Positions 41,041 to 62,169 of a stretch of DNA of 64,000 nt are shown here, in pieces (positions within the stretch are counted from its first letter, which is position 1; each line of letters begins with the position of its first letter). Made by a program: the position numbers and the translations under genes. The notes beneath the pieces are model-generated. The model did no database searches. It was not told where the DNA came from and saw only the letters and a list, made by a program, of their open reading frames with translations. Source of the DNA: Pseudomonadota bacterium (lineage in GTDB: Bacteria; Pseudomonadota; Alphaproteobacteria; Rhodobacterales; Rhodobacteraceae); assembly GCA_038532285.1 (NCBI GenBank), contig JBCBAV010000002.1, positions 2,679-66,678 of the forward strand. The letters run 5' to 3'.

Positions 41041-41373
41041 ATGAATGACGACACACTGAGCGCCGCTTTTTCCGCGTTGGCGCATCCCACACGGCGGGCC
41101 ATCGTTGCCCGACTTGCCAAGGGCACTGCCAGCGTGAATGAACTGGCCGAACCGTTTGACATGACCTTGCCCGCCATTTCCAAGCACATTCGCGTCTTGG
41201 AGAGCGCCGGACTGATTTCGCGCGAAAAGGCCGCGCAGTTCCGGATATGCAAACTCGAGACGCAACCGATCCAGGACATCTCAAGTTGGACCGAGCAATA
41301 CCGACATATCTGGGACGCCCGTTTTGAGGTCATGGGCAACCTGCTCGAAGCCCTAAAGGAGAAGGACAAATGA
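41041..41373 (+). CDS. ArsR/SmtB family transcriptional regulator
   Basis: 110 aa. ALAHPTRRAIVARLAKGTASVNELAEPFDMTLPAISKHIRVLESAGLI. A TTAATTAA palindrome lies about 25 nt upstream. Confidence 0.85.
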   Translation: MNDDTLSAAFSALAHPTRRAIVARLAKGTASVNELAEPFDMTLPAISKHIRVLESAGLISREKAAQFRICKLETQPIQDISSWTEQYRHIWDARFEVMGNLLEALKEKDK

Positions 41374-42695: not shown

Positions 42696-43475
42696 TCACA
42701 TCGGCCGTCTGGCCAGCGAAAACACCTGACCCGTTGGTCCCCCCGGTGGGTAGCTTGCGATATGCAAAGCCAATGCCGCGACCTCATCGGGATGCTTGAC
42801 CCGCTCCCAAGCTGGCAACCCCTTTGGCAAGGCGCCCGGACCGCTTGACAGGATGTCATCGGCGCTGCGTTCCTGACCAGCGGGTGCGTTGTCAAAGGTT
42901 GCCGTCGCTGTCGGCCCGGGAACGAGGCTGTTAACCTCGATTTCGTGTGTCCACAGCTCGTTTGCGAGGCCTTCTGTCATCATGTTCAGCGCTGCCTTGG
43001 ACACGTGATAGGCGCTGCTATTGGCGCCTGCCGAAAAACCCTTGCCCGAGGTCAGGTTGATGATCTTGCCGCCTTTACGCATGGCACCAGCAAGATACCT
43101 CGACATCAGATAAGGGCCACGAACATTGACCTTCAATGTCTGCCACCACAGGTCCGGATCGCTGTCCGCAAACGCGCCACGCTCAAAATAGGCACCTGCG
43201 TTGTTCACGAGGATATCAACGGTGCCAAAACGCCGGATGATCCTCTGACAGAACCTGGTGGTTTGCGCCTTGTCTGCCAGATCCACAGGTTCACAGAAAC
43301 ACTGCCGCCCCAGCGCTTCGACCTCGGATCGCACGGCACCAATCTCGTTCTTGCGACGGGCGCAGATTGCTACATCTGCCCCGGCCCTGGCGAACGCCAA
43401 CGCAATGGATTTACCAATCCCGCGACCTGCACCGGTGACAACCGCAACCTTTCCCGCGAGCACGTCTTCAGTCAT
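42696..43475 (-). CDS. Short-chain dehydrogenase/reductase (SDR)
   Basis: Track ORF 42696..43544. The ATG at 43475 (MTEDVLAGKVAVVTGAGRGIGKS) overlaps the upstream gene by 8 nt. NNAG and YHVSK active-site motifs. Confidence 0.85.
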   Translation of the reverse strand: MTEDVLAGKVAVVTGAGRGIGKSIALAFARAGADVAICARRKNEIGAVRSEVEALGRQCFCEPVDLADKAQTTRFCQRIIRRFGTVDILVNNAGAYFERGAFADSDPDLWWQTLKVNVRGPYLMSRYLAGAMRKGGKIINLTSGKGFSAGANSSAYHVSKAALNMMTEGLANELWTHEIEVNSLVPGPTATATFDNAPAGQERSADDILSSGPGALPKGLPAWERVKHPDEVAALALHIASYPPGGPTGQVFSLARRPM

Positions 43476-44313
43476 GCCGACTGGCCTCCAATGTCGCGAG
43501 AGTTGCGGCAATCTCTGCAACACCCGCATCCCAATCCACGGCACCTTTTGCTGTGTAATGGGCCATCGGAAGCGCGCGTTGCAGACAGTCTATCCCATCC
43601 CAAAGCCGCGTGTCGCAGATCATCACGAATGGCTTGCCTTTGGTTGCACGGGCTTCTGCGAATGTGTCGACGAGCTCGCGCGTGTCCGTGCCGCTGATGC
43701 GCCGCGACGCGAAGCCGAAGGCTTCAAACTTTTCAGGAACCGGTTCGACGGCCATTACGTCCGCCGCATGGCCCGATGCCTGCATGTCGTTGTTGTCGAT
43801 GATGTAACACAGGTTATCCAGCTTCTGGTGACCCGCAAACATTGCTCCTTCCCAGGTATTGCCCTCTTGCAGTTCCCCGTCAGAGAACAGGCAATACACC
43901 CGTTGGTCAGACCCTTTCTGGCGCAATGCCCAGGCAAGCCCCGCCGATTGGCTCGCCCCCTGCCCCAGTGACCCCGCAGTCATCTCAAAGCCAAGCTGGC
44001 CTTCGATTGGGCTTTGATCCACCCAGGAGCCGTCCGCGTTGATGGTGCGCAGATCTTCGATTGAATAGTGGCCTGTCTCGGCCAGTGCCGCATAGGTCAT
44101 GATTGCGTCATGACCGTTGGACAGGACAAATCGGTCGTAAAACCAGCCGTCATTGTCGGGTCTGAGTTCGTCGAAATAGAGCGCGGCAGCAATGTCCGCC
44201 AAAGCCACGCCCTGTGCTGCGTAGCCACCCCTCTGGCGACAAATCTCAAGCACGTGAGCGCGAATTTTAGCGGCGATTATGTCCAGATCATTGATGGATT
44301 GAGTGCGTCTCAT
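43468..44313 (-). CDS. Transketolase-like protein, N-terminal (TPP-binding) section, pair 1
   Basis: 281 aa. LSNGHD, SDGELQEGNTWEG...IIDNN (TPP-binding GDG-x-N pattern). Confidence 0.85.
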   Translation of the reverse strand: MRRTQSINDLDIIAAKIRAHVLEICRQRGGYAAQGVALADIAAALYFDELRPDNDGWFYDRFVLSNGHDAIMTYAALAETGHYSIEDLRTINADGSWVDQSPIEGQLGFEMTAGSLGQGASQSAGLAWALRQKGSDQRVYCLFSDGELQEGNTWEGAMFAGHQKLDNLCYIIDNNDMQASGHAADVMAVEPVPEKFEAFGFASRRISGTDTRELVDTFAEARATKGKPFVMICDTRLWDGIDCLQRALPMAHYTAKGAVDWDAGVAEIAATLATLEASRHD

Positions 44314-45281
44314 GCGGCCATCTCCGCAATGCGGCGCGCCATGGTTTCTGCATCAAGACCGAGGGCCTGGCGAATGTGAGACAGTGTTCCGCCGGGTGCC
44401 CACCGGTTGGGCAGACCCATGCGCGTGATCCGCGGGCCCCTTCCGATGTCCGACACGATCTCGGTCACGAGCGATCCGAGCCCGGTGACGATTTGGTGGT
44501 TCTCGACCGTGACAATCTGGTTATGCGCAAAAGCAAACGCGGCGACCTCGTGCTCACGCACGGGTTTGAGCGTCGGCACATGCAGCAAAGAATGGTCAAC
44601 GCCTTGGTTTTCCAGCAGTCTAGAGGCTTCAAGCGCCCACTGCGTGCCGTGCCCTGTCGCGATTATCCCGATGCCTTTGCCCTCTTTCAGACGATAGGTC
44701 TTGCCCAGTTCAAAGGTGAATTTCTCCGGGTCGAGCAGACGCGGCGTGTCGCCCCGGTGACCCCGTATGTAGATCAGACCGGGAAGATCCACGGCAGCAT
44801 TCACAGCGGCGCGGAAATCTGTTGGGTCCATCGGATCAATTACAGTCGCGTTTGGAATCGCACGCACCATGCCAAGATCCTCAGCCGCCTGATGGTGAAT
44901 GCGCGCCGGATTGGCGATGCCGGGCGTAAAGCCAACGGCGATGTTGGTTGGCCCGGCTTCCCGGTTGGTGCCCGGCCCGCTGCCCGTGCCCATGCAGATC
45001 ATCATTTGATCATAGGCACGCCGCGTGATGTAGCAGGCAAAGCAGGTTGCAATCGGAATATACCCACCTTTGGCCACGCCCGCTGCGACAGAGAGCAGGT
45101 TCTGTTCGGCCATGCCAACATCAAGGTGTTGGTCCGGCAGTTCGGTTTTGACCCGCACAACCTGGCAGTACTTGCTGAGATCTGCGCTCATGATCACCAC
45201 GTCTTTGCGACGCGAGGCGAGATCAAAGCTGATGTCGTCAAATGGAGCGGGATCAAAAGATATGGGACCGTTCAGCAGCAT
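44310..45281 (-). CDS. Transketolase-like protein, C-terminal (pyrimidine-binding) section, pair 1
   Basis: Track ORF 44310..45353. The ATG at 45281 shares one base with the sulfatase stop. VGMAEQNLLSVAAGVAKGG, ...ARIHHQAAEDLGMVRAIPN. Encoded upstream of its N-section partner. Confidence 0.8.
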   Translation of the reverse strand: MLLNGPISFDPAPFDDISFDLASRRKDVVIMSADLSKYCQVVRVKTELPDQHLDVGMAEQNLLSVAAGVAKGGYIPIATCFACYITRRAYDQMMICMGTGSGPGTNREAGPTNIAVGFTPGIANPARIHHQAAEDLGMVRAIPNATVIDPMDPTDFRAAVNAAVDLPGLIYIRGHRGDTPRLLDPEKFTFELGKTYRLKEGKGIGIIATGHGTQWALEASRLLENQGVDHSLLHVPTLKPVREHEVAAFAFAHNQIVTVENHQIVTGLGSLVTEIVSDIGRGPRITRMGLPNRWAPGGTLSHIRQALGLDAETMARRIAEMAA

Positions 45282-46765
45282 CAGTTCACATGTATCGCAT
45301 TGGGCAAAAGGACAGTTTCGAGATGCGCCTTGGCTTCGGCATGGGTAACCCAATCGGGTGGCGGGAAATCAGCCGACATGTCCCAGTCATCGCCTGTCTT
45401 TTCCATATGCGCCGCGAGGTCGCGATCAAACTGGTCCATCATCTGAGCATAGGTGGGGTCCTCGACAAGGTTCACCTGTTCGTTAGGGTCGACCCGCTGG
45501 TCGTAGAGATAGGCGCGGTGATCCTTGCGACGGACATACAGCCAGTCCTTGGATCGAATGCCACGTTCCGCGTATGGTGTGTATTCAATCGGATTGCCCC
45601 CTGTCTGGCGAAAGACTTGATACCAAAGCTGACGTCGATGCTCGGTCGCGGTGCCGTTAAGCACCGGCAGATAGCTTTTGCTGTCTCTCCCCTGAGGCAT
45701 GTCTATGTCGAGAAGATCAAGGATCGTCGCCATCATGTCGACGCCGACGTCGATCATTGCCTGCGTTCGCCGCGGTTTGAACCGTGCCGGATAGCGTACC
45801 ATCAAAGGCACGTGCATGGACGCACGAAAGGCCTGGTTCTTGAGTCCGCAGAACGACCCGTGCTGGCCCAACATGTCACCGTGATCCGATAGAAAGACCA
45901 CCATTGTGTCTTCGGTGATCCCCAGTGCATCCAGATGGTTTAGAATACGGCCTACGTTGAAATCGATATTGTGGATCATCCCGTAATATTCCGCGATGAA
46001 CTCCCTGATTTCCGCCTCGGTCTCAACTTCGCCGACGGGCTTGGTTTCGTGGCTGCAATGGCTTTTGTGTCCCGAGCGGGGATCGCCGCCACAAAGAATG
46101 TTGGTCCTGTGATCCTGCACGCGTGTCTGCAATTCAGCATCTGGCACGCCGGGGGGAAGCGGCACCTCTTCCGGTCTGTAAATGCGACGCAAGTGATCGG
46201 GCATGTCCATGGGAAAGTGAGGTGGCCCGTAGCTGAGATAGCCGAAGAAAGGCGCGTCTTTCTTGGCCGCGTTGTCCATGAAGTCGATGAACTGGTCGGT
46301 CTGGTAATCCGGCTCGTACCGCGTCGAGTGATAGGCCTGCCCCGCGTCGTCATAGTAGATCGACGAAAGATAGTCATGACCCCGATTGAACCCGACGAAA
46401 TGATCAAAGCCGAACCTTCGATCCGATGGCACGAACCCCGGCTTGGGGCCGCCCTCCAGATGCCATTTGCCGATATAGCCAGTCTGATAACCCGCATCCC
46501 TCAGGAACTCGGCCAGGAAGCCTTGCCCACCCCGAAGCGGGAAATGGTTTTGGATCATTCCGTGGCCTTGGGCGTACTTTCCAGTCAGCATCGAAGCGCG
46601 GAACGGACAGCAAATTGGGTAGCTTGTGTAGGCCTCTTCGAAATGCACGCCCTCGTTGGACAGTCTGTCGATATTGGCCGTCCGGATGACAGGATTGCCC
46701 GTGCATCCCATCGCGTCATAGCGCATCTGGTCCGCGTATATGATCAGGATATTCGGGCGCGTCAT
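45281..46765 (-). CDS. Type I sulfatase (Cys-type), no signal peptide
   Basis: Track ORF 45281..46795. The ATG at 46765 sits in an ATGA overlap with tctA. MTRPNILIIYADQMRYD, CCPFRASMLTGK (CxPxR), GYIGKWHL. 494 aa. Confidence 0.85.
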   Translation of the reverse strand: MTRPNILIIYADQMRYDAMGCTGNPVIRTANIDRLSNEGVHFEEAYTSYPICCPFRASMLTGKYAQGHGMIQNHFPLRGGQGFLAEFLRDAGYQTGYIGKWHLEGGPKPGFVPSDRRFGFDHFVGFNRGHDYLSSIYYDDAGQAYHSTRYEPDYQTDQFIDFMDNAAKKDAPFFGYLSYGPPHFPMDMPDHLRRIYRPEEVPLPPGVPDAELQTRVQDHRTNILCGGDPRSGHKSHCSHETKPVGEVETEAEIREFIAEYYGMIHNIDFNVGRILNHLDALGITEDTMVVFLSDHGDMLGQHGSFCGLKNQAFRASMHVPLMVRYPARFKPRRTQAMIDVGVDMMATILDLLDIDMPQGRDSKSYLPVLNGTATEHRRQLWYQVFRQTGGNPIEYTPYAERGIRSKDWLYVRRKDHRAYLYDQRVDPNEQVNLVEDPTYAQMMDQFDRDLAAHMEKTGDDWDMSADFPPPDWVTHAEAKAHLETVLLPNAIHVN

Positions 46766-48240
46766 CGCGTGAGCCTTGATGTGACTGGCCCCCAAAGGAT
46801 CGTCAGCGCGAGGGCCGCATAGATTGTAATGCCAATGGGCGTGTTGAAGAATTCGAAGACGGACCCATCGGCGATAGTGAGCGATTGGCGCAGAGAGTTC
46901 TCGAGGATGGGTCCAAGCACGAAGCCGATGGAGAGCGGCGCAATGGAGTACCCCAGCTTTCGCACCACGTAGCCAAGTATGCCAGCGCCCAACAGCACGC
47001 CAACATTGAAGAACGAATTCGAGACGGAGTAAATGCCAACGAAACTCAACAGCAGCACGGTCGGTACGATAACCGACGTCGGAACGCGGATCAGCTGCGC
47101 CGCAAAGCGGATCGCGATCAGGCCGATGAACATCATCAGGATGTTGATCACAAACAACCCGATAAAGATTGCGTACATCAGATCCGGTTCATCCGTAAAA
47201 AGCTTTGGCCCGGGCGTCAGTCCCTGGATCAGTAACGCCCCCAGCAACACTGCAGCAGCAGGCGAGCCGGGCACGCCCAAAGTCAACGTCGGGATCAGCG
47301 CGCCTCCGACCGTCGCGTTATTGGCGGTTTCGGGTGCAATGATGCCTTCGGGGATGCCAGTACCGTATTTCTCGGGTGTCGCGGATCGTCGTTTGGCTTC
47401 GGAATAGGCAAAAAATGCGCCGACCGCGGCGCCCTCGCCCGGAATTATCCCGATGACGGTGCCGATGATCGACGAGCGCAAGATCACATCCTTGAGCCGG
47501 CCAAGCATCTTGAAGCCAGGGAGCTTGACTGTCAGGCTTTCCATGGAAAAATCGACCTTGCGCGCCGCGCGCTCGGCTCCGATCAACACTTCGGACATCG
47601 CAAAAAGCCCAACGAGGAAAGGCACGAGTGGCAGGCCTTCGTAGAGGTGGTAAGTCCCAAAGGTATAGCGCTCGGTCCCGTTCAATTCGTCCAGTCCCCA
47701 GGTGGTCAAAAAGATGCCGAGCGCGCCGACAAGCAGACCCTTTGGCAGGCTTTGTCCCGCCACGCGAACCACGACAATCAGTCCGAAAACCGAGATGGCA
47801 AGGTATTCCCGCGGCCCGAACTTTGCGGCCAGTTGCGCCATGAATGGCGCAATAAGCGCAAGGCAGATCGCAGAAAATAGACCGCCGACGATAGACCCTG
47901 TAAGTGATAAGCCAAGCGCTTCGCCGCCGCGGCCCTGTTTGAACATGTTATTGCCATCCAGCACGGTGGCGATGGCGGCCCCAGTGCCCGGAATTCCGAC
48001 CGCAATAGCTGAAATCGAGCCGCCGTATATCGCCGCCGAGTAGATACCCAGCAGCAAAACCATCGATGGAACAGTGTCCATGTAGAACGTGAATGGCAGC
48101 GCCAGCGCAATCGCGATGGGCGGCCCGAGACCTGGCAGAATGCCGATCACAAGACCCAAGACAATGCCCAGAACCAAAAGCGCAAGCGTAAGGGGATCTG
48201 CCAAGAGCCAAAACGCGGAAATGAGCGCCGCTCCATCCAT
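46762..48240 (-). CDS. tctA: Tripartite tricarboxylate transporter, large permease TctA
   Basis: Track ORF 46762..48411. The ATG at 48240 (MDGAALISAFWLLADPLTL...) shares one base with the tctB stop. 493 aa polytopic protein with ILPGLGP and GIIPGEGAAVGAF segments. Confidence 0.85.
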   Translation of the reverse strand: MDGAALISAFWLLADPLTLALLVLGIVLGLVIGILPGLGPPIAIALALPFTFYMDTVPSMVLLLGIYSAAIYGGSISAIAVGIPGTGAAIATVLDGNNMFKQGRGGEALGLSLTGSIVGGLFSAICLALIAPFMAQLAAKFGPREYLAISVFGLIVVVRVAGQSLPKGLLVGALGIFLTTWGLDELNGTERYTFGTYHLYEGLPLVPFLVGLFAMSEVLIGAERAARKVDFSMESLTVKLPGFKMLGRLKDVILRSSIIGTVIGIIPGEGAAVGAFFAYSEAKRRSATPEKYGTGIPEGIIAPETANNATVGGALIPTLTLGVPGSPAAAVLLGALLIQGLTPGPKLFTDEPDLMYAIFIGLFVINILMMFIGLIAIRFAAQLIRVPTSVIVPTVLLLSFVGIYSVSNSFFNVGVLLGAGILGYVVRKLGYSIAPLSIGFVLGPILENSLRQSLTIADGSVFEFFNTPIGITIYAALALTILWGPVTSRLTR

Positions 48241-48701
48241 CAGATCAACTGGACCCCAAGGCCAAACATAAAGATCGCAGTGACAACCGCCGTGAGCGCC
48301 AGAACAACAGCGTAGACAAGTGGCGTGCGGACACCCATCGCCAAAAGACTGAGTGGCCCGAGCACACAGGCCATCGGTAAAAACCCGACATAGCGCCAGA
48401 TTGCATAGCACCCAACAGCGACAAAAAGCATAAGCAAGCCTTGCCGAGCCTCGCGGCCATCAGCAAAGACCGCCTCGCCTTCGTCGCCACCGGCTGAGCC
48501 GTGCTTCAGGTATGAATATCCCACTATGAGCGCACACAAAGCCGCAAGCCCCAGCATCAGTTGCGGAAAGAACTTCGATGGCAGTCCAGCGCTGGCCAGC
48601 AGCCCGGATGTTGTGAACCCTTGCGCCACCCACGCGAAATATCCGCATGCACACAGGACAATGACGACAAAGACCATATTCGCAACGCGTTGGCTGAGCA
48701 T
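48240..48701 (-). CDS. tctB: Tripartite tricarboxylate transporter, small membrane protein TctB
   Basis: Track ORF 48240..48797. I prefer the ATG at 48701 (MLSQRVANMVFVVIVLCACGYF), preceded by GGGGG. About 153 aa with 4 predicted TM helices, located between tctC and tctA. Confidence 0.65.
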   Translation of the reverse strand: MLSQRVANMVFVVIVLCACGYFAWVAQGFTTSGLLASAGLPSKFFPQLMLGLAALCALIVGYSYLKHGSAGGDEGEAVFADGREARQGLLMLFVAVGCYAIWRYVGFLPMACVLGPLSLLAMGVRTPLVYAVVLALTAVVTAIFMFGLGVQLI

Positions 48702-48768
48702 TCTCGCCCCCCGAAGGCACAAAACGTCGCGCAAGAATGCCTGCGCGACGCTTCCAAAGTATAAGCGC

Positions 48769-49734
48769 TTACTTCTTGAGCAGGCCGAGACCGTCAAGCA
48801 GAGGCGAATACAAATCGATGCCCGATTGGATCAGCGCGGTCGTCTCATCGACACCGTGGGTCCAGTCGTAACTGACAGCCCTGGGAACTTTGGCGATAAA
48901 GGCATCTTCGCCCATCGACTGGGACGCTTGCAGCAGCTTGTCCACAATCTCTTGGGGGGTACCGGCTTTTACGGCAAGACCACCGTGCACCCAAGTGCCC
49001 GCCTCTTTGCCGGGGAAGGCCTCACCCACGGTGCGCACGCCGGGCAGGTCCTTTTCATAATAAGGCTTGCGGTCGTTATCGAGGATGATGAGCGGGCGGA
49101 TCTCATCGCCGTAGGCGTGGATCGAGGCGACCTGCCCGACTGCGACATCCACCTGACCGCCAATCAGCCCTGCGAGCGTTGCCGGAACCGTCTTCAGAGC
49201 GATCGTATTGAACTCGAGCCCGAACTCAGACGCCATTTGCACAGCGGACAGGTTCGGCGGCGCGCCAAAGTTGTTTACACCCATGGTCAGCTTGTCAGCC
49301 TTGGCCCCTTCGATGAATTCTTCGAAGGTTGTGTACGGGCTATCGGCCCGCACGTAGAGAGCGTTCGACGCCGAGATCCCAGCATAAAGCGGGATGAAGT
49401 CCGTGAGTGGATCGTAGGGCGTGTCGCGCGTCAGAGGCACAACCATGAAACTCGGCGGCGACCAGTTGAAAACAGTGTATCCGTCTGCCGGCGCTTCAAG
49501 CACACTCATCGTTGCGGGGATATGCGCGCCACCCGGCTTGTTGACGACATTTACCGGCACGCCGAGCGCTTGGCTCAGCACGTCTGCGTTCATCCGAGCG
49601 ACGATATCGGCGTTTCCTCCGGCACCGAAGGATACAACATATGTGATCGGTTTTTCCGGCCATTCAGCCAGCGCCGCGCTCGTCATAAGCCCAAGCGCCG
49701 CAAACCCGGCGACCGCCAGTTTCATCAGTTTCAT
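48769..49734 (-). CDS. tctC: Tripartite tricarboxylate transporter substrate-binding protein (TctC/Bug family)
   Basis: 321 aa with signal peptide MKLMKLAVAGFAALGLMTSAALA. GGNADIVAR and NKPGGA segments typical of Bug proteins. Confidence 0.85.
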   Translation of the reverse strand: MKLMKLAVAGFAALGLMTSAALAEWPEKPITYVVSFGAGGNADIVARMNADVLSQALGVPVNVVNKPGGAHIPATMSVLEAPADGYTVFNWSPPSFMVVPLTRDTPYDPLTDFIPLYAGISASNALYVRADSPYTTFEEFIEGAKADKLTMGVNNFGAPPNLSAVQMASEFGLEFNTIALKTVPATLAGLIGGQVDVAVGQVASIHAYGDEIRPLIILDNDRKPYYEKDLPGVRTVGEAFPGKEAGTWVHGGLAVKAGTPQEIVDKLLQASQSMGEDAFIAKVPRAVSYDWTHGVDETTALIQSGIDLYSPLLDGLGLLKK

Positions 49735-49778
49735 GTGAAGCCCTCCCTGCTTCGTGCCACGGCCTTTTGGCCATTAAT

Positions 49779-49796
49779 GGTCTAGATATGCATACC
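49779..49796. promoter_or_regulatory. Candidate HutC-type GntR operator upstream of tctC (GGTctagatatgCATACC)
   Basis: Lies 45-62 nt upstream of the tctC start. Contains TGGTCTAGA, a classic HutC/DasR-like half site. Shares the GGT-N9-CATACC frame with 50573-50590. Confidence 0.35.
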
Positions 49797-49831
49797 TTTT
49801 ATGGAACGCCGTCGTGAGTCAAGTTTGCATT

Positions 49832-50548
49832 TCATGCGCCTTCGGTGGCGAATTCCATCTCTAGCTCAAGCATGTCTCCGGGGTAGGATAGCGTGGCAGA
49901 GTAGATCAGTCGGCCTTCGCAATCGAGAAATTCGCGCAGCACGCGAAAGACGGCAGAATTCACCTTGATCCCCAAGGCGCGCGCCATTGCAAAATCCGCG
50001 TGTGCAATAGTGACCCTTTGGCGCGCCTTGTGAACGTTCACGCCAAGATCCCGCAGCACCGAAACAACGATCTCTTGTGCGAAACGCTCGGGTGCGCGAT
50101 CAAAAATCTGATCGTCCAGCTTTATGTCCACCTGACAGAACGGCTTGCCCAAACGTGCGTGAATACGCGTCATGGCCCTGAAATAGCGCCCATCTTCCGC
50201 TTTCTCTATCATGGCGTCGTTTTGTGTGACCGACACTTCCAACTGATCCACCATTTCATAAATCTGCGAGATGTCCGCCTTCATCTGCATGGTATGCCGT
50301 GTGGGCCTTTTGACGGCTTTGACAAACGTGCCCCTGCCAGAGTGCTTTTCGATCAACCCTTCGTCTTCGAGCGTGTTCATGGCCTGAACCACGGTCATGC
50401 GCGCCACGCCAAGCTGTTCAGTCAACTCTCGAAGCGCTGGAAGCTTGGCTCCGGCCGTCAAATCACCTGACATGATCTGGTGCCGCAAAACCTCGGCCAC
50501 CTCGGCATGCAACGGCACAGAGGCGCGCTTCATCGCCTGAAGATTCAT
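49832..50548 (-). CDS. GntR family transcriptional regulator, HutC subfamily (wHTH + UTRA)
   Basis: 238 aa. LPALRELTEQLGVARMTVVQAMNTLEDEGLIEKHSGRGTFV followed by a UTRA-like C-terminal domain. Confidence 0.85.
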   Translation of the reverse strand: MNLQAMKRASVPLHAEVAEVLRHQIMSGDLTAGAKLPALRELTEQLGVARMTVVQAMNTLEDEGLIEKHSGRGTFVKAVKRPTRHTMQMKADISQIYEMVDQLEVSVTQNDAMIEKAEDGRYFRAMTRIHARLGKPFCQVDIKLDDQIFDRAPERFAQEIVVSVLRDLGVNVHKARQRVTIAHADFAMARALGIKVNSAVFRVLREFLDCEGRLIYSATLSYPGDMLELEMEFATEGA

Positions 50549-50568
50549 ATTGACAACCTCCCCAATTC

Positions 50569-50594
50569 AATAGGTACAAAGGTCCATACCTATT
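50569..50594. promoter_or_regulatory. Inverted repeat AATAGGTA-N10-TACCTATT in the divergent promoter (contains GGTacaaaggtcCATACC)
   Basis: Perfect 8-bp arms located between the GntR start (50548) and the GTG start at 50614. Confidence 0.4.
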
Positions 50595-50613
50595 AACCAT
50601 AACGAGCGCGCTT

Positions 50614-51441
50614 GTGAAAGAAAAACACAATCTTTCAGAACTCGAAGCAATCGCCACGCGTTTGCGGTTGCATGTGGTGGATATGGTGGCGCCGTCTGGC
50701 CAGGGCTATGTGCTGCAAGGGCTCGGCGCTGCAGATATCTTTGCGACGCTCTACTTTGCCGAGGCAACGATGGACCCTGCCAATCCGGACTGGCCGGAGC
50801 GAGATCGCGTTTTTCTGACAACAGCACACAACACGGCAATCTTCTATGCAACCCTGGCCGAACGGGGCTTTTTCCCGGTCGAAAAGCTCAAAAGCTACGT
50901 GACCGACGGCTCTGCGCTGGAGATCAATTCATCAGAACGGATGGGGACGTTTGTCGAGGCAACCTGCGGGTCTCTTGGTCAAGGTTTGTCTGTGGCCATC
51001 GGCTGCGCCCTGAGCGCGAAGCGACAGGGCCGATCCAGCCGTTTTTACGCGATCGTCGGCGATGGCGAGATGCAGGAAGGCCAGATCTGGGAAGCCGCAA
51101 TGCTTGCCGGGGCTTGGGCGCTCGACAATCTCGTGGTGATCGTTGACTACAATTTTGTTCAGTCCGAGGGGCCAATGGACAGGGTGATGACCCTGGATCC
51201 GCTGATGGAAAAGATGGAGAGCTTTGGCTTCGCCTGCCAGGAAGTGGATGGAAACGATATCCCAACCCTTTTGGCCGCCTTTGACGTAGCGCGCGACACA
51301 CAAGGAAAACCAAGCTTCATAAAGGCCAACACCCTGATGGGCAAAGGAGTGCCGTCACTCGAAGGGCTGATGTTCCACCAACTGCGCTTTCCACCCGAGG
51401 TCGCGGCATCCGCGCGCGCTGAACTGGAAGCGCCACGATGA
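50614..51441 (+). CDS. Transketolase-like protein, N-terminal (TPP-binding) section, pair 2
   Basis: 275 aa with GTG start. GDGEMQEGQIWEAAMLAG...IVDYN. Confidence 0.85.
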   Translation: MKEKHNLSELEAIATRLRLHVVDMVAPSGQGYVLQGLGAADIFATLYFAEATMDPANPDWPERDRVFLTTAHNTAIFYATLAERGFFPVEKLKSYVTDGSALEINSSERMGTFVEATCGSLGQGLSVAIGCALSAKRQGRSSRFYAIVGDGEMQEGQIWEAAMLAGAWALDNLVVIVDYNFVQSEGPMDRVMTLDPLMEKMESFGFACQEVDGNDIPTLLAAFDVARDTQGKPSFIKANTLMGKGVPSLEGLMFHQLRFPPEVAASARAELEAPR

Positions 51442-52418
51442 ACACGCTCACCCAACTCGAAGCAGCCGATTTCATCAACCGCTCGTTCAAGCCACTCCCG
51501 CGTGCATATGGCGACGCTCTCGTAGAAGCAGCGCAGGCCGATCCACGAATTGTCGCGCTATGTGCCGACCTTGTGCCGCCCACGGAAACCGACCGTTTTC
51601 GCGACGAGTTGCCAAATCGCTTTCACAATGTCGGCATTGCCGAGGCAAACATGATAGGCATTGCCGGGGGTATGGCCCGCTCGGGCGAAATTCCTTTCTG
51701 TCACTCGTTTTGTGCCTTCATCACCAAACGGGTACTGGATCAGATCGCGATGCAGGCCGCCTATCCCAATCTGCCCGTCAAGCTGGTTGGCTTTTTGCCC
51801 GGAGTGGCAACGTTGCTGGGTGTCTCCCATCAGGCGATCGAAGATGTGGCGATCCTGCGCGCGGTGCCCAACATGGCGATATTCGAACCATCCGGACCCG
51901 AGTATCACGCGGCCATGGTCAAATTGGCGCTTGATTGGGATGGCCCGGCGTATCTGCGAATGAAACGGCCCGAAACCCTGCCGGACGCATTTGAACCGAA
52001 ATCCCTCGATGTTGGAAAAGGCGTGATCCGGCGCGAAGGCGGGGATGCCACAAAAATCTCAGCCGGTCTGAGCGTTGTAGAAAGCTTGAACGCGGCGGAA
52101 GTATTGAGCCACGAAGGGATAGAGGCCCGCGTGGTCGACATCGCATCGCTCAAACCGCTCGACGGCAATCTGATCCTTGAAAGCGCAGACCGGACCGGCG
52201 CGATTGTGACAGCGGAAAACCATTCGATTATCGGTGGACTTGGCTCTGCCGTCTCAGAGGTGCTGATGGACGAAGGCATCGGCCTGCCGTTTCGCCGCGT
52301 GGGTATTCAGGATCGCTTCTGCGAAGGCGGCTCGACCCCCTATTTGATGAACAAATTTGGCCTTGATGCCCCTGCCATCGCGCAGGCCGTTCGCACCGTG
52401 ATGGAGAAAAAGACATGA
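51438..52418 (+). CDS. Transketolase-like protein, C-terminal (pyrimidine-binding) section, pair 2
   Basis: 326 aa with ATGA overlap. VGIAEANMIGIAGGMARSG, GVSHQAIEDVAILRAVPNM. Confidence 0.85.
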   Translation: MNTLTQLEAADFINRSFKPLPRAYGDALVEAAQADPRIVALCADLVPPTETDRFRDELPNRFHNVGIAEANMIGIAGGMARSGEIPFCHSFCAFITKRVLDQIAMQAAYPNLPVKLVGFLPGVATLLGVSHQAIEDVAILRAVPNMAIFEPSGPEYHAAMVKLALDWDGPAYLRMKRPETLPDAFEPKSLDVGKGVIRREGGDATKISAGLSVVESLNAAEVLSHEGIEARVVDIASLKPLDGNLILESADRTGAIVTAENHSIIGGLGSAVSEVLMDEGIGLPFRRVGIQDRFCEGGSTPYLMNKFGLDAPAIAQAVRTVMEKKT

Positions 52419-53827
52419 GCTTTCGCTATGAATTCGGCGCGGGCGGTGACGCCTGCGAAACTGTCAACCCGGCGAACCCCTCCGAAAAAATTGGCCGCTA
52501 TGGGGTAATGGATGCCGGTGAGTTGGCGAAAACCATCGAACGCGCCAATGCGGCGCAGGCGGAATGGGCCCGAGTGCCGGGGCTGGAGCGATCGCAGCGT
52601 CTGAACGCTTTCATCGATGCAGTAGAGGCACGGGCCGACGCGTTGGCGACAGCAGGCACGCTCGAGCAGGGAAAGCTGTTCCGCGAAAGCAAAGGCGAGA
52701 CGATGAAGTCTTGCGCCGAAGGCCGGTTCTCGGTTGGCGAAGCCGCGCGCATGGGTGCAATGGCCATTGCAACCGGGCGGGCTGGGTTCTCGAACCAGAT
52801 CCTGCGGCGACCTCGCGGCGTAATTTTTTGCATCAGTCCATGGAACTTCCCGATCTCGACGCCCATGCGCAAGATCTGTCCGGCGCTCGCATTCGGCAAC
52901 GCGGTGGTCATGAAGCCTTCGCAGTTCACGCCAGCGGCGAATTTCCTGCTGGCAGAAATTTCGGCAGAGTTCTTCCCGAAAAACCTGATCCAGGTCGCAA
53001 TGGTATCGGGTCGCGTGGCAAGCGAAGCGATTGCTTCGGCAGATATCCATGGCGTCAGCTTTACCGGCTCGGTGCCTACCGGCAAACTGGTCTATGCAGC
53101 CGCAGCCCAGAATCTGGTTCCTGTGCAACTTGAACTTGGCGGCAAAAATGGCGCGATCCTAAATGATAGCGATAATCTCGAAGGCGCGATTGGCCAGATA
53201 CTCGGTGCCGCGTTCATGACCTCGGGCCAACGCTGCACCGCCATCAGTCGGATCATCGTGCAAAAGGACATCGCCGACGAAGCAAAGGACATTCTCACAG
53301 CCAAGGCGGCCGCAATGCAAATGGGCCCGGGCATGAGTGATGACAGCGATATTGGCCCCCTGTGCAACCACCCCCATTGGCAGGATGTGTGTGATGCAAC
53401 AGCCAGGGCCATCGCGGAAGGCGCATCGCCTCTCACCGGCGGCTCGGCACCCGGGGCTCCGGACGATGGATACTTCTTTGCGCCGACGGTTCTGGATGGT
53501 GTCGAGCATAATTCGATTGGTGGTCAACACGAGATCTTTGGACCCGTACTGTCGGTTCTAGAATACGATACATTCGATCAAGCCATGGGTATCTTGAACG
53601 GGACCGAATTTGGTCTGACATCCGCTCTTTTTTCCAATCGCAATGACCTGATCCAGCGCTTTTTGTCCGAAAGCCAGAACGGGATGATCCATGTGAACCA
53701 TGGCACCGTACCCGACAACAATATGCCCTTTGGCGGCATCAAAAACTCGGGTGTGGGCGCTTATTCAGTGGGCCCGACAGCGGTAAATTTCTACACGTCC
53801 GAACATTCCGCCTACGTCGCCTGGTAG
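52415..53827 (+). CDS. NAD(P)-dependent aldehyde dehydrogenase
   Basis: 470 aa. QLELGGKNG and TSGQRCTA motifs. Confidence 0.9.
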   Translation: MSFRYEFGAGGDACETVNPANPSEKIGRYGVMDAGELAKTIERANAAQAEWARVPGLERSQRLNAFIDAVEARADALATAGTLEQGKLFRESKGETMKSCAEGRFSVGEAARMGAMAIATGRAGFSNQILRRPRGVIFCISPWNFPISTPMRKICPALAFGNAVVMKPSQFTPAANFLLAEISAEFFPKNLIQVAMVSGRVASEAIASADIHGVSFTGSVPTGKLVYAAAAQNLVPVQLELGGKNGAILNDSDNLEGAIGQILGAAFMTSGQRCTAISRIIVQKDIADEAKDILTAKAAAMQMGPGMSDDSDIGPLCNHPHWQDVCDATARAIAEGASPLTGGSAPGAPDDGYFFAPTVLDGVEHNSIGGQHEIFGPVLSVLEYDTFDQAMGILNGTEFGLTSALFSNRNDLIQRFLSESQNGMIHVNHGTVPDNNMPFGGIKNSGVGAYSVGPTAVNFYTSEHSAYVAW

Positions 53828-53828
53828 C

Positions 53829-54962
53829 GTGCGCTTCTCACGTTCCATAACTTTGGATAGCATCACAGCCATCCCGATCCGCGCCTCGGGTGGTGTGTCC
53901 CCGAAGATGGCTCTTGGCACCATGCCAACCCGTCCTGCCTTGCTCGTGCGCGTCGAGGACCGGGCGGGGTGTTTTGGATGGGGCGAAATCTGGGCCAACT
54001 TTCCGGCGCGTGCGAACCTGCACAAGGCGCACATTGTCGAGGACGTTATTGCCGCGCACCTGAACGGTTTCAGCTTTTGTGACCCGCGCGAAGTTAACGA
54101 AGCGCTGCGGTCGCAACTGTCCGTGTATTTTTTGCACGTCGGCCAGCAACAAGTGTTTGAGCATGTTCTGGCAGGCCTCGATACTGCGCTTTGGGATCTG
54201 TGCTTGCGTAATTCCGACCAGAGCTTTGTCGATGCCATGGGCCTGCGCGAAAAACAGGCGAAATCCTATGCGACCTCGATCAATGCCGAAGATCTGGAAC
54301 GGTTGATCCCGCTTCATGCGTGCCTTGGGCAAAGCCATTTCAAGTTGAAAATCGGGTTCGCGGACCATGGCAACGTCCAGATTGTCGAACAAGCCACAGC
54401 ACTTTGCCCGCGCGGGACGCGGATCATGGTCGACAGCAATCAAAGCTGGACCCTCGAAGGCGCAAGGACATCCCTGCGCGCCATCGAGAGTTTCGCGCCA
54501 TTCTTTGCCGAAGAGCCCTTGCGCGCAGACGCACCAGCCCACGATTGGGAGTGCTTGGTGAATTCAACGGACATCCCCCTCGCCGGTGGCGAGAATATCT
54601 ATGGCATCGACGATTTCCTGCGCATGGCCGATCTTGGTTTGCGATTCCTGCAACCGGATGTGGCCAAATGGGGCGGGATGTCCGGCGCGCTCGACCTTGC
54701 CGAAAAGGTGCCGGATGACGTGTCGATCTGGCCTCATTTCATGGGCACATCGGTTGGTCAAATCGCCGCCCTTTCGATCAGTGCCGCCGTTGGCGCAAGA
54801 TCCTTTTGCGAGGTCGATGTCAACAAAAACGCATTGCGCACAGAATTGAGCGGTGACGTGATCCGCATCGAAAATGGAGTCGTGTCTTTGCCCTCGGAAC
54901 CAGGATTGGTCGCACCGCCAAAGCCCGAAGCGCTGACCGCGTTCGCCGAAGTGAGTACCTGA
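53829..54962 (+). CDS. Mandelate racemase/muconate lactonizing enzyme family protein (enolase superfamily)
   Basis: 377 aa with GTG start. FKLKIGF (full KxK), VDSNQSW, AEEP, GGEN, PDVAKWGG. Confidence 0.8.
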   Translation: MRFSRSITLDSITAIPIRASGGVSPKMALGTMPTRPALLVRVEDRAGCFGWGEIWANFPARANLHKAHIVEDVIAAHLNGFSFCDPREVNEALRSQLSVYFLHVGQQQVFEHVLAGLDTALWDLCLRNSDQSFVDAMGLREKQAKSYATSINAEDLERLIPLHACLGQSHFKLKIGFADHGNVQIVEQATALCPRGTRIMVDSNQSWTLEGARTSLRAIESFAPFFAEEPLRADAPAHDWECLVNSTDIPLAGGENIYGIDDFLRMADLGLRFLQPDVAKWGGMSGALDLAEKVPDDVSIWPHFMGTSVGQIAALSISAAVGARSFCEVDVNKNALRTELSGDVIRIENGVVSLPSEPGLVAPPKPEALTAFAEVST

Positions 54963-54967
54963 GACCG

Positions 54968-56590
54968 ATGTCTGCGCAAAACTGGCTGTTTAAATTTGCC
55001 AAGGTCGTCCCATCAGGCAACGCAGACGAAATTGCCGAACTCTTTGCACCAAATGGTTTCTGGCGCGATTATCTCCCCTTCGGCGGCACTTTGCAGACTG
55101 TCGAGGGGTGTGCGGCAATCGCCGCTTTCGCCGCGCGCACCGATGCCGCTTGCGGTTTGCAGAATGTGATTTTCGAAGGCGCGGCGGACGCGAACGAAGG
55201 CTTTTTTCGGTTTTCCGTCGCCGCGGGCCACGGTCGCGGCTACCTGCGCTGCAAGAATGGTCTTTGCGAAACGCTGTTTACCCAACTTGGCGATCTCGCA
55301 CATCCACCAGCTCGCTCCGACGACAACACCGCGCCTTTCGTTCTGGTGGTTGGTGGGGGGCAAGGCGGGCTCGCTCTGGGCGCACAGCTTGCCGATCTGG
55401 GGGTCCCGTATCTCATCATAGACAAGCACCCACGGGTGGGTGATCAGTGGAGATCCCGCTACGACAGTCTCGTGCTACACGACCCTGTCTGGTACGATCA
55501 CATGCCGTTCAAACCGTTCCCCGAGGATTGGCCGGTGTTCACGCCCAAGGACCGAATGGGCGACTGGCTCGAAGCCTATGCAAAAGAGTTGGGCTTGAAC
55601 ATTTGGACCAACGCCGCCCTGACATCAGCGAAATATGATGGAACGACGTGGTCCGCCGACGTGATGCGCGATGGTAACCCGACCACGGTAAAGCCTAGCC
55701 ATCTGGTCATGGCCCTTGGCCTTTCCGGCTTTCCGAATGTGCCTCAATTTCCGGGTCAGGATATCTTTGCGGGTCGTCAAGAGCACTCGAGCGTCTTTGA
55801 TCTCAAGGGGTGCTACGCCGGAGAGGATGTCGTCATCATCGGAGCAAACAATTCAGCGCATGACATTGCGTCGGATCTGGTTGGGATCGGTGCGCGTCCG
55901 GTGATTGTTCAACGGTCGTCGTCTCTGGTCGTGCGGCAAAGCGATTATTGCGAGAAAGTCCTTGGCCCGCTTTATTCCGCTGATGCGGTCGCCCGAGGCA
56001 TCACAACGGACAAAGCAGACATATTGCAGGCGTCCATGCCGCTACGTTTGCTGGAAAAGCGTCACAAGGCGATCTGGGATGAAATCCGCGCCGATCAACG
56101 TGAATACTATAAGCGTCTGACGGATGCAGGTTTTGCCTTGGACTTTGCCGAGGATGAAACCGGCCTCGGCATGAAATACCGCCGCACCGCCTCTGGCTAC
56201 TACATTGATGTGGGTGCTGCCGAAATGGTGATGGATGGTCGGATTGCAGTATGCTCCGGCACTGGTATCAGCCACCTCAGCACCCAAGCCGTTCATCTTG
56301 AGGATGGCGCGTCTCTGACCGCCGATGCTGTTGTCTATGCGACGGGATATGGTGACATGACGGACTGGGTTGCCGCGCTGGTTGACCAAGACACAGCACG
56401 CAAGGTCGGCCCATGCTGGGGGTACGGTTCCGGCACCAAAGGTGATCCCGGCCCGTGGATCGGAGAACTACGCAACATGTGGGTCGAGACGGCGCAACCC
56501 GGCCTTTGGTTCACGGGCGGCAATCTCAGCCAAGCGCGTTACTACTCCCGCTTTCTGGCGCTGCAGCTGGCACAACGGTCTTTGACATGA
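54968..56590 (+). CDS. Flavin-containing (class B) monooxygenase / NAD(P)/FAD-dependent oxidoreductase
   Basis: 540 aa. VVGGGQGGLALG (FAD), DVVIIGANNSAHD (NADPH), and a roughly 120-aa N-terminal extension. Confidence 0.75.
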   Translation: MSAQNWLFKFAKVVPSGNADEIAELFAPNGFWRDYLPFGGTLQTVEGCAAIAAFAARTDAACGLQNVIFEGAADANEGFFRFSVAAGHGRGYLRCKNGLCETLFTQLGDLAHPPARSDDNTAPFVLVVGGGQGGLALGAQLADLGVPYLIIDKHPRVGDQWRSRYDSLVLHDPVWYDHMPFKPFPEDWPVFTPKDRMGDWLEAYAKELGLNIWTNAALTSAKYDGTTWSADVMRDGNPTTVKPSHLVMALGLSGFPNVPQFPGQDIFAGRQEHSSVFDLKGCYAGEDVVIIGANNSAHDIASDLVGIGARPVIVQRSSSLVVRQSDYCEKVLGPLYSADAVARGITTDKADILQASMPLRLLEKRHKAIWDEIRADQREYYKRLTDAGFALDFAEDETGLGMKYRRTASGYYIDVGAAEMVMDGRIAVCSGTGISHLSTQAVHLEDGASLTADAVVYATGYGDMTDWVAALVDQDTARKVGPCWGYGSGTKGDPGPWIGELRNMWVETAQPGLWFTGGNLSQARYYSRFLALQLAQRSLT

Positions 56591-57318
56591 ACCGGCTTGA
56601 TGGAAAGGTCGCCCTGATCACCGGCGGGGCACGCGGGATAGGTGCAGCCGAGGCTGCGCTTTTTGCTGAGGCAGGCGCCCAAGTCGTTATGACCGATGTG
56701 GATCAGACCGAAGGCGAGACCGTCGCCGACGCTATTGGAGACGCGTGCACGTTTCATTTTCAGGATGTGGCGTCGGAAGAAGACTGGGATGAGCTCATGG
56801 TCTTTATCAAACGCACATATGGCGCGCTTGACGTGTTGGTGAACAATGCTGGGATCTTTCGGGTGATGGGTACAGAAGAAACCAACCTGGACACTTGGAA
56901 CCAACTTGTCGCCATCAACCAGACCGGAACATTCCTGGGCATTCGCAGCGCTGTGCCATTGATGAAACGCGGCGGCGGCGGCAGCATCATCAATTCATCA
57001 TCGATCGCAGGGCTTGCCGCGACGCCGCGCGCATCGGCGTATGCAGCAACCAAATGGGCAGTGCGCGGTCTGACAAAATCTGCTGCCGTCGAATTCGCGC
57101 CATTCGGAATCCGTGTAAATTCAGTCCATCCGGGACTGATTGACACACGGATGATGCAGGAACTGAACCAGTCCGCCGAAGAACGTGACGCGCGTGTCCC
57201 GCTTGGGCGTCAGGGAACGGTGCATGATGTTGCCAAGCTCGTTCTTTTCCTCGCGTCCGACGACTCTGCCTATTGCACCGGACATGAATTCGTAGCGGAC
57301 GGTGGACTGAAGGCATAG
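56587..57318 (+). CDS. Short-chain dehydrogenase/reductase (SDR)
   Basis: Track ORF 56455..57318. The ATG at 56587 sits in an ATGA overlap. GKVALITGGARGIGAA, NNAGI, YAATKWAV. Confidence 0.85.
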   Translation: MNRLDGKVALITGGARGIGAAEAALFAEAGAQVVMTDVDQTEGETVADAIGDACTFHFQDVASEEDWDELMVFIKRTYGALDVLVNNAGIFRVMGTEETNLDTWNQLVAINQTGTFLGIRSAVPLMKRGGGGSIINSSSIAGLAATPRASAYAATKWAVRGLTKSAAVEFAPFGIRVNSVHPGLIDTRMMQELNQSAEERDARVPLGRQGTVHDVAKLVLFLASDDSAYCTGHEFVADGGLKA

Positions 57319-62165: not shown

Positions 62166-62169
62166 GCCC

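Follow-up and report, generated by a model that had tools for sequence, protein, structure and literature searches.

Positions 42696-57318 of a 64,000-nucleotide stretch of contig JBCBAV010000002.1 (assembly GCA_038532285.1, a member of the Rhodobacteraceae), hereafter termed the window, carry two gene chains that combine a tripartite tricarboxylate transporter (TTT) and a cytoplasmic sulfatase with two transketolase (TK)-like enzyme pairs, dehydrogenases, an enolase-superfamily enzyme and a Baeyer-Villiger type monooxygenase. On balance, we favor the reading that these genes constitute a mobile catabolic island controlled by a HutC-type repressor, by means of which an anionic sulfate ester would be imported and desulfated in the cytoplasm, its skeleton then being degraded without phosphorylation. 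The most likely substrate is a sulfated hydroxy-carboxylate or acid sugar with one carboxylate and one sulfate ester, and sulfated glycans of algae or animals are its likely source. This reading starts from gene content, synteny, operators shared by both chains, intact catalytic motifs and altered TK active sites, all of which are direct observations.

The minus-strand chain starts with tctC (48769-49734; Pfam TctC 4e-29), encoding the periplasmic solute-binding protein, followed after a gap of 67 nt by tctB for the small membrane subunit (48240-48701; Pfam TctB 1.3e-7, exceeding its cut-off) and tctA for the large membrane subunit of the importer (46762-48240; Pfam TctA 1.5e-142). Downstream lie genes for a cytoplasmic type I (formylglycine) sulfatase (45281-46765; Pfam Sulfatase 9e-56 and SGSH_C), for the C-subunit (Pyr and C-terminal domains; 44310-45281; Pfam Transket_pyr and Transketolase_C) and the N-subunit (43468-44313; Pfam Transketolase_N 1.5e-34) of a first non-canonical TK pair, TK1, the latter subunit comprising the thiamine diphosphate (ThDP)/PP domain, and, as the last gene of the operon, for a short-chain dehydrogenase, SDR1 (42696-43475; Pfam adh_short 2e-50). 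The plus-strand chain comprises a second non-canonical pair, TK2, with its N-subunit (50614-51441; Pfam Transketolase_N 2.6e-38) and a C-subunit of the "LL type" (51438-52418; Pfam Transket_pyr and Transketolase_C), an aldehyde dehydrogenase (ALDH; 52415-53827; Pfam Aldedh 5e-127), an enolase-superfamily enzyme of the mandelate-racemase (MR) subgroup, MR/MLE (53829-54962; Pfam MR_MLE_C 5e-35 and MR_MLE_N), a type II flavin monooxygenase (FMO) of the Baeyer-Villiger type (54968-56590; match to PDB 8acs at 3e-157) and, at its end, a second short-chain dehydrogenase, SDR2 (56587-57318; Pfam adh_short_C2 3e-65). A gene for a HutC-type GntR regulator (49832-50548, minus strand; Pfam GntR 1e-20 and UTRA 5e-11) resides on the same strand as tctC and upstream of it, with a promoter/operator gap of its own, which refines the layout drawn up earlier.

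ORF listing and Pfam scans thus reproduced the content of 14 genes that a first-pass annotation, made from the sequence alone, had reported for the two chains, as well as the 67-nt distance between tctC and tctB, which had been given as approximate. The overlaps of stop and start codons it described at 48240, 46762-46765, 45281, 44310-44313, 43468-43475, 51438-51441, 52415-52418 and 56587-56590 all coincide with the ORF coordinates. They amount to 8 nt between the genes for SDR1 and the TK1 N-subunit, 4 nt between the sulfatase start and the tctA stop, and 4 nt between SDR2 and the FMO stop. On a public contig with an identical sulfatase, an independent gene call set the same boundaries for TctB, TctA and the sulfatase (492 amino acids for TctA and 153 for TctB). 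The annotated genes of the cluster also agree with the earlier statement that kinases, phosphatases and glycoside hydrolases are absent; none lies inside the cluster and none recurs in 80 related loci. A scan for consensus promoters and terminators gave matches below shuffle expectation and was not used.

These 80 loci were found by a scan of species representatives (one genome per species); 74 of them carry a sulfatase at least 65% identical to that of the window, and the presence of the other genes was mapped by tblastn with proteins of the window and accessory proteins. In the 74 loci, TctA was found in 69, TctC in 66, the GntR regulator in 60, the TK2 N-subunit in 54, TK1 in 49, MR/MLE in 44, SDR1 in 38, ALDH in 30 and FMO in 25, all of these counts being minimum values, as numerous contigs are cut off within the cluster. 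In a neighborhood comparison of the kind proposed with the first-pass annotation, synteny is kept across 74 species-level genomes. Carriers of the sulfatase belong to the Rhodobacteraceae/Paracoccaceae (including HIMB11) and Granulosicoccaceae and further include metagenome-assembled genomes (MAGs) labelled Rhizobiaceae and Geminicoccaceae, Thioalkalivibrio sp. HK1, Candidatus Rhodobacter oscarellae and other MAGs with sponge-related names. Among them, HIMB11, Primorskyibacter sedentarius DSM 104836, a Marinovum isolate (2_MG-2023) and Thioalkalivibrio sp. HK1 are cultured; the gene is also present in a Planktotalea sp. record, the culture origin of which was not checked.

With regard to mobility, TctA, the sulfatase and the TK2 N-subunit of the gammaproteobacterial Granulosicoccaceae share 70-86% amino acid identity with those of the alphaproteobacterial window, and in one genome a module of TK2, ALDH and MR/MLE is present that is unlinked from the sulfatase locus and located beside a DDE transposase. 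In addition, the G+C content is 0.565-0.59 across positions 36000-62000 of the window, comprising the cluster and its neighbors, as compared with 0.64-0.68 elsewhere, which is consistent with this stretch being acquired DNA. Cross-class identity, the transposase-adjacent module and the stretch of lower G+C content together suggest horizontal mobility of the island. A search of a plasmid collection gave no match. Sox genes near some of the loci were considered as well and proved to be flanking genes only, not part of the cluster.

The regulator has the N-terminal GntR winged helix-turn-helix and the C-terminal UTRA domain of the HutC subfamily. Alignment of intergenic regions from 46 loci revealed two conserved 20-mers that we regard as putative operators, both read on the minus strand, unique in the 64-kb window and with none expected by chance. 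O1 (50573-50592; TAGGTATGGACCTTTGTACC) is located between the regulator gene and the TK2 operon and is conserved in 41 loci with the consensus AAAGGTMTRGACCTTTGTACC, and O2 (49779-49798; AAGGTATGCATATCTAGACC) belongs to the promoter region of tctC, where a conserved TTGAC box lies upstream of it, and is conserved in 43 loci with the consensus AAAGGTAYRTACATCTAGACCA. The GGT...ACC cores of both resemble operators of the HutC family. The occurrence of such operator-like elements in both promoters points to co-repression of the two operons by the HutC-type regulator. Synteny and operators bear out the view that the two operons are parts of one system, and they rule out chance juxtaposition, which was considered and rejected. 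As far as can be judged from the sequences, the assignment of the whole cluster to one conserved, co-regulated unit is supported.

TctC, TctB and TctA all exceed their Pfam cut-offs and are encoded by adjacent genes, as is characteristic of TTT systems. TctC has a signal-peptide-like N-terminus (MKLMKLAVAGFAALGLMTSAALA) and is only a distant relative of solved Bug/TctC proteins according to a sequence search of the PDB. Known TTT ligands carry two carboxylates or a carboxylate and another group and include sulfolactate and galactarate/glucarate (PMC5812351). In the literature searched, no TTT system was found to be tied to a sulfate ester or a sulfatase. In the loci studied here such a linkage is tight, with tctA directly upstream of the sulfatase gene in 69 of the 74.

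The sulfatase begins with MTRPNILIIYADQ and lacks a signal peptide. The Pfam Sulfatase fold (PF00884) spans residues 4-354, and residues D12/Q13, the motif C52-C-P-F-R56, K100/H102, H183, D294/H295 and K309 are invariant in 73 orthologues, in full agreement with the earlier prediction of a cytoplasmic type I sulfatase of the CxPxR type. The nearest solved structures, 5g2v (GlcNAc-6-sulfatase; 4.6e-50) and 2qzu (YidJ-like), are carbohydrate sulfatases, and aryl, choline and phosphonate-ester enzymes score below them in the PDB comparison. The choline-sulfatase model TIGR03417 yields 173.7 bits, far from its cut-off of 433.45; the enzyme accordingly does not fall among choline or aryl sulfatases occurring without TK neighbors, an outcome that would have spoken against a link between sulfatase and TKs. 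Names given to homologues in the source records are generic (sulfatase, choline-sulfatase, arylsulfatase A-like). A gene for a protein with a formylglycine-generating enzyme (FGE) domain and without signal peptide adjoins the cluster in 27 of the 74 loci. In Primorskyibacter sedentarius (L061) the gene following that for the sulfatase resembles a SulP/STAS sulfate permease, as read by eye from its translation, no family search having been made. These features support the assignment of a cytoplasmic formylglycine enzyme, probably a competent one, that is tied to the TTT importer.

The two TK pairs were mapped onto the human and Carboxydothermus enzymes, and about 50 orthologues of each subunit were then checked. 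All orthologues of both enzymes retain the ThDP/Mg motif and the cofactor-activating Glu (D155, N185, H77 and E366 in human numbering). For the substrate positions (human/E. coli), we take H37/H26 to line the donor site, H110/H100 to contact the donor C1-OH and D424/D469 to read the acceptor 2-OH, and S345/S385, H416/H461, R318/R358 and R474/R520 to bind phosphate. In TK1, H37 is replaced by Tyr and H110 by Ser in 50 of 50 N-subunit orthologues, in which H77, D155 and N185 are kept, and in the C-subunit Tyr takes the place of S345, Thr or Asn that of H416, Ala that of D424 and Pro that of R318, with E366 and R474 being kept in 48 of 48 orthologues. In TK2, Tyr and Asn occupy the positions of H37 and H110 (51/51 orthologues), and Pro, Leu and Leu those of S345, H416 and D424, with R474 retained (50/50); R318 is replaced by Pro with an adjoining Arg/Lys. 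R474/R520 is the only residue of the phosphate site that is kept, and it is kept in both enzymes. The pocket of the TK1 C-subunit has gained Tyr345, His427 and an Arg-containing insertion (NPAR), and that of TK2 keeps two basic residues. When compared with transketolase proper (EC 2.2.1.1), TK1 and TK2 thus have the cofactor residues and lack the donor histidines as well as the residues of the phosphate and 2-OH sites. The earlier annotation was right in recognizing two split pairs; these are not canonical transketolases. The order of subunit genes also differs, with the C-subunit gene preceding that for the N-subunit for TK1 in all loci and in sister clusters L093/L094, and the N-subunit gene coming first for TK2.

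Changes at the same positions have been introduced into E. coli transketolase. Mutants of His100 accept pyruvate instead of hydroxypyruvate, D469T/E/A variants prefer non-alpha-hydroxylated aldehydes, H461S and R520V lead to a preference for non-phosphorylated acceptors, and the combination S385Y/D469T/R520Q allows aromatic aldehydes to be accepted (PMC3657141, bioRxiv 10.1101/719906, PMC5073344). The evolved variants (H26Y, H100L/F/T, H461S, D469T/E/A, S385Y, R520Q/V) are point mutants, whereas the proteins described here are natural two-subunit enzymes under purifying selection. By analogy, the invariant substitutions make the natural enzymes look adapted to donors without a free C1-OH, and their acceptors are likely to be neither sugar phosphates nor 2-hydroxy aldehydes. 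The TK2 C-subunit belongs to a large family sharing the Leu/Leu signature. Among the 115 nearest full-length split-TK C-subunits from a search of 1.84 billion representative proteins, the canonical His/Asp pair is kept in 35 and the catalytic Glu in 114. In function, the split "TK" superfamily is diverse, and most of it is uncharacterized.

Among the remaining enzymes, the ALDH has its catalytic residues E240 and C274. Its best NCBIfam models, those for alpha-ketoglutaric semialdehyde and 2,5-dioxovalerate dehydrogenases, all stay below their cut-offs, and a PDB sequence search returned generic relatives only. The MR/MLE protein exhibits the motifs of the MR subgroup, i.e., FKLKIG171 (K172-L-K174), D202, E228, E256, D277 and H303, and judging from these it is probably an acid-sugar dehydratase or a cycloisomerase; the nearest structure, 3ddm, is one of unknown function. 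MR/MLE enzymes require a carboxylate in their substrate. A module of the DauA/DauB type for 3,6-anhydrogalactose was considered and rejected, as the MR/MLE protein is no closer to DauB/ACI (5olc, 8e-18; 5xd7, 1e-13) than to other members. The FMO contains the motifs GGGQGG129, FAGRQEHSSVF267, GANNSAHD292 and YATGY457 of class B type II FMOs/Baeyer-Villiger monooxygenases (BVMOs), and its PDB match 8acs is JsFMO, a type II FMO with BVMO activity (PMC10028610). In seven Granulosicoccaceae loci this FMO is absent and a classical type I BVMO with the FxGxxxHxxxWP fingerprint is found instead, so that the Baeyer-Villiger step appears to recur via non-orthologous replacement. Orthologues of SDR1 follow TK1 in 38 related loci, and those of SDR2 (61-72% identity) end the TK2/MR/MLE side in four (L028, L029, L059, L067); the best model for SDR2, trans-4-hydroxycyclohexanecarboxylate dehydrogenase, is below its cut-off.

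Variation among the loci is considerable with respect to the ThDP enzymes. TK1 is replaced by an acetolactate synthase (ALS)-like ThDP enzyme of 570 amino acids in 17 loci, ten of which also have a different SDR in place of SDR1, and a third TK type, again with Tyr at the position of H37, takes the place of TK2 in five loci. Sixteen loci have an insertion between the genes for the TK2 N- and C-subunits, made up of an SDR and a PDH/acetoin-type E1 alpha/beta pair; this insertion, seen among L035-L057 about 2-5 kb upstream of the regulator gene, comes without E2 or E3 and splits the TK2 pair by about 3 kb. If the comparison is limited to the 52 loci flanked by at least 8 kb in both directions, ThDP enzymes are encoded in 49 and belong to at least two families in 38. 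A choline-dehydrogenase-like GMC gene flanks the cluster in ten loci. From this variation, TTT import, the sulfatase, SDR oxidation beside ThDP-dependent C-C chemistry, and an MR-subgroup enolase enzyme emerge as recurrent functions, as do the Baeyer-Villiger step and, in many cases, the ALDH. In the window itself, a fragmented ALS-like ThDP gene is located about 2 kb beyond SDR1 (39397-40822, plus strand). It matches the ALS-like enzyme of the variant loci at 22% by tblastn, with a Pfam match to TPP_enzyme_C on 40427-40822, and it is probably a pseudogene because stops and a change of frame interrupt its reading frame.

The closest outside relatives of both TK types lie in clusters without a sulfatase, in which carboxylate or sugar importers are encoded and, in most cases, MR/MLE dehydratases and SDRs as well. 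TK2-type relatives share the Leu/Leu signature at 40-47% identity. One sister cluster (L082-L085, 1-17500) from an AT-rich marine bacterium encodes AcnX, SDRs, a TauE exporter, an MR/MLE protein, the TRAP importer DctPQM, TK2-type N- and C-subunits, a beta-hydroxyacid dehydrogenase, an EamA exporter, a PfkB kinase, a UxaA/GarD-type dehydratase and a GMC oxidase, and is devoid of a sulfatase; its MR/MLE protein (L082) displays the same motif pattern as that of the window, and its GMC oxidase is 42% identical to the one flanking the sulfatase cluster in other genomes. We know of no description of this sister cluster. In L088, L090 and L091, Leu/Leu split TK genes reside in a TRAP operon with larA, larB, larC and a beta-hydroxyacid dehydrogenase gene, an arrangement that recurs in many metagenomes; LarA, LarB and LarC are encoded by nickel-pincer hydroxy-acid racemase genes. 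Others (L086, L087 and L089, from Bradyrhizobium, Rhizobium and a metagenome) lie beside genes for a class III aminotransferase, dimethylformamidase-like proteins or amidases, and an ABC importer. TK1-type relatives (44-47% identity) have the same Tyr/Ser signature and the same gene order of SDR, TK C-subunit and TK N-subunit, and their neighbors are sugar ABC importers, MR/MLE dehydratases and SMP-30 or MBL-type lactonase-like genes; one such cluster adjoins rhaM/rhaA. By their gene content, the sister clusters would point to acid-sugar chemistry, and these contexts fit both the known TTT ligands sulfolactate and galactarate/glucarate and the need of MR/MLE enzymes for a carboxylate.

From these data we infer which class of substrate is used, in which order the steps occur and what each ThDP enzyme catalyzes, as follows. 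TctC would bind a di-anionic sulfated hydroxy-acid or acid sugar in the periplasm, TctAB would import it, and the translationally coupled cytoplasmic formylglycine sulfatase would free the sulfate, probably as the first step. SDR dehydrogenases, together with the GMC oxidase in some genomes, may then create keto groups, the MR-subgroup enolase enzyme may dehydrate the acid sugar to a 2-keto-3-deoxy acid, and the two TK-fold ThDP enzymes would cleave or decarboxylate next to the keto group, in the place of an aldolase or hydrolase. The ALDH would oxidize the aldehyde product, and the Baeyer-Villiger FMO would turn a ketone intermediate, possibly of a branch, into an ester. As a sketch, a hexonate could be converted to 2-keto-3-deoxy-hexonate and oxidized at C5 by an SDR to a 2,5-diketo-3-deoxy acid, from which a ThDP enzyme, by cutting between C4 and C5, would release a C2 unit and formylpyruvate, the latter being oxidized to oxaloacetate by the ALDH. 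This putative sequence would explain the lost Asp that reads the 2-OH, the retained Arg and the altered donor pocket. A further-reaching reading is put forward very tentatively, and we consider it rather doubtful: both TK-fold enzymes would be natural lyases of C-C bonds, or decarboxylases, in a new acid-sugar route without phosphorylation in which a ThDP enzyme replaces the aldolase, and at least one of them, TK1, would act on a still-sulfated intermediate, the sulfate ester of which is accommodated by the remodelled pocket.

Several points weigh against desulfation followed by acid-sugar breakdown. No FGE gene is present in the 64-kb window, no enzyme of the cluster reaches a meaningful curated NCBIfam cut-off, and MR/MLE (44/74) and ALDH (30/74) are not universal, even though contigs are cut. 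The aminotransferase and amidase neighbors of LL-type TKs indicate that this family is not restricted to acid sugars, and the MR/MLE enzymes of the TK1-type sister clusters are not close to that of the window. To our knowledge a BVMO fits no known sugar-acid route. Finally, the basic residues of the TK2 C-subunit and the Tyr, His and Arg gained by that of TK1 keep an anionic, sulfated TK substrate conceivable.

The last point leads to the model of the first-pass annotation, in which a sulfated ketose or polyol would be processed while still sulfated, with the sulfate replacing phosphate as the handle recognized by the TKs and the sulfatase acting late, on a small sulfated fragment. The conservation of split TK pairs beside a sulfatase without any kinase agrees with it, as do R474 (E. 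coli R520) in both C-subunits, the conserved Arg/Lys beside the lost R318 in TK2 and the residues gained by TK1 (Tyr345, His427 and the Arg-containing insertion), and the TauE-family anion exporter and YihU-like dehydrogenase of the TK2-type sister cluster hint at organosulfur sugars. We nevertheless judge this model to be quite unlikely. H26, H100, S385, H461 and D469 are replaced and only R520 is left; Pro/Leu/Leu give TK2 a hydrophobic pocket and the Asp that reads the sugar 2-OH is lost. TK1 can be swapped for an ALS-like enzyme (17 loci) and the E1 pair added (16 loci), the outside relatives nearest to the TKs come from clusters that lack a sulfatase and have carboxylate or sugar importers, in several cases together with acid-sugar enzymes, an aldose-ketose isomerase is missing, and the sulfatase is translationally coupled to the importer.

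The hydrophobic pocket of TK2 would fit a non-carbohydrate substrate, i.e., a sulfated alicyclic or aliphatic secondary alcohol with an acid group such as a sulfated cyclitol or hydroxy-cycloalkane carboxylate. Once this is desulfated, an SDR would form a ketone, the BVMO would open or esterify it, ThDP enzymes would cleave acyloins or 1,2-diones, and the ALDH would act last, in a manner known from pathways of the cycloalkanol or inositol type. Such a route, which we regard as unlikely, would be in keeping with the maintenance of the BVMO function via non-orthologous replacement, with the AcoAB-like E1 and ALS-like ThDP enzymes of variant loci, and with the best model for SDR2, a trans-4-hydroxycyclohexanecarboxylate dehydrogenase (below its cut-off). 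On the other hand, carbohydrate sulfatases provide the nearest structures for the sulfatase, sugar or sugar-acid genes are found in sister clusters of both TK types, the window contains no esterase or lactonase, and FMO was found in only 25 of the 74 loci and a type I BVMO in seven. Highly improbable, in our view, is a role of the formylglycine enzyme as a phosphonate monoester/phosphate diester hydrolase (PMH/PehA-like) within an island for scavenging of phosphorus or sulfur instead of carbon catabolism. Weak matches to PehA/phosphonate monoester hydrolase do exist (NCBIfam 203 bits versus a cut-off of 900; PDB 2vqr 6.5e-39), yet carbohydrate sulfatases score higher, a SulP-type sulfate permease-like gene (read by eye) follows the sulfatase gene in one locus, nine carbon-processing enzyme genes are part of the same predicted transcripts, and control is presumably exerted by a HutC-type regulator with putative operators of its own (Pho or CysB sites were not looked for). 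Seawater is moreover rich in sulfate, which also counts against scavenging.

Among established systems, the sulfo-TK route for sulfoquinovose (SQ) resembles the present cluster in that a split TK (SqwGH) acts on an anionic, non-phosphorylated sugar derivative without a kinase, and its TauE-family exporter has a counterpart in one TK2-type sister cluster. The handle is a sulfonate there and a sulfate ester here, the comparison with SqwGH being one by description only, and the TKs of the window lack canonical donor and acceptor residues. The sulfo-TK route also needs a sulfoquinovosidase, an SQ isomerase, a sulfoacetaldehyde reductase and an isethionate exporter, none of which was found among the annotated families of the window or recurring in the 80 loci, no search with reference sequences having been made. 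The utilization of choline-O-sulfate (betC, the GMC dehydrogenase gene betA and the ALDH gene betB) likewise relies on a cytoplasmic Cys-type sulfatase, the alcohol and the aldehyde being oxidized thereafter, and both the GMC gene flanking ten loci and the ALDH of the window are reminiscent of it. However, that route has no counterpart to the ThDP enzymes, MR/MLE or BVMO, and choline sulfate is taken up by ABC or BCCT carriers, not by a TTT anion system. A choline sulfatase system was accordingly rejected, as the model cut-off is not reached and the importer is of the wrong type.

The TTT systems for sulfolactate (SlcHFG) and galactarate/glucarate (PMC5812351) have a TctCBA-type importer beside catabolic genes, as is the case here, and their ligands combine a carboxylate with a second anionic group or are acid sugars. 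TctC of the window is only distantly related to the characterized binding proteins. The non-phosphorylative routes for sugars and uronates (Weimberg/Dahms; the L-rhamnose/L-fucose LRA route; the uronate Udh-Gci-KdgD-KGSADH route, the last enzyme being alpha-ketoglutaric semialdehyde dehydrogenase) share with the cluster the combination of an SDR, an MR/MLE enzyme and a semialdehyde dehydrogenase without a kinase, and TK1-type relatives lie among lactonase, MR/MLE and rhaM/rhaA genes. In contrast to these routes, the cluster has no aldolase, KdgD or FAH-type hydrolase, with TK-fold ThDP enzymes in that place; it also goes beyond them by its sulfatase, its importer type and its BVMO, and the MR/MLE protein matches no model of a characterized dehydratase. 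While catabolic operons that join an importer to a sulfatase are of a known kind, the combination of a TTT importer, a cytoplasmic formylglycine sulfatase, remodelled TK-fold enzymes, an MR/MLE enzyme and a BVMO is undescribed in the literature searched, as had been surmised from the outset.

Sulfated glycans of algae, diatoms and animals represent a large and slowly degraded marine pool of carbon and sulfur, and their known degraders make use of secreted or periplasmic sulfatases. The island suggests a second strategy: in common Rhodobacteraceae, in Granulosicoccaceae and in sponge symbionts, a small sulfated acid would enter the cell intact and lose its sulfate in the cytoplasm. Should this be correct, it would provide the first physiological role for two large uncharacterized split "transketolase" families, the natural active sites of which resemble variants obtained by directed evolution. 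If, in addition, TK1 acted on a sulfated intermediate, a sulfated sugar acid would for the first time have a catabolic pathway assigned to it, and a sulfate ester a TTT importer; the bacteria concerned are associated with sponges, kelp and phytoplankton. As cultured carriers exist, the system is directly testable.

The surroundings of the cluster hold further genes. A locus for haem uptake, comprising a TonB-dependent receptor, a HemS/ChuX haem-degrading protein, a Peripla_BP_2 binding protein and an FecCD permease, directly follows the plus-strand operon (57979-63228). At the opposite end, genes for an ArsR-type regulator and an AHSA1/SRPBCC protein (41041-41867, plus strand) lie between the ALS-like pseudogene and SDR1, and a bacteriophytochrome-type sensor kinase with GAF, PHY and HWE histidine kinase domains is encoded at 35623-37944 on the minus strand.

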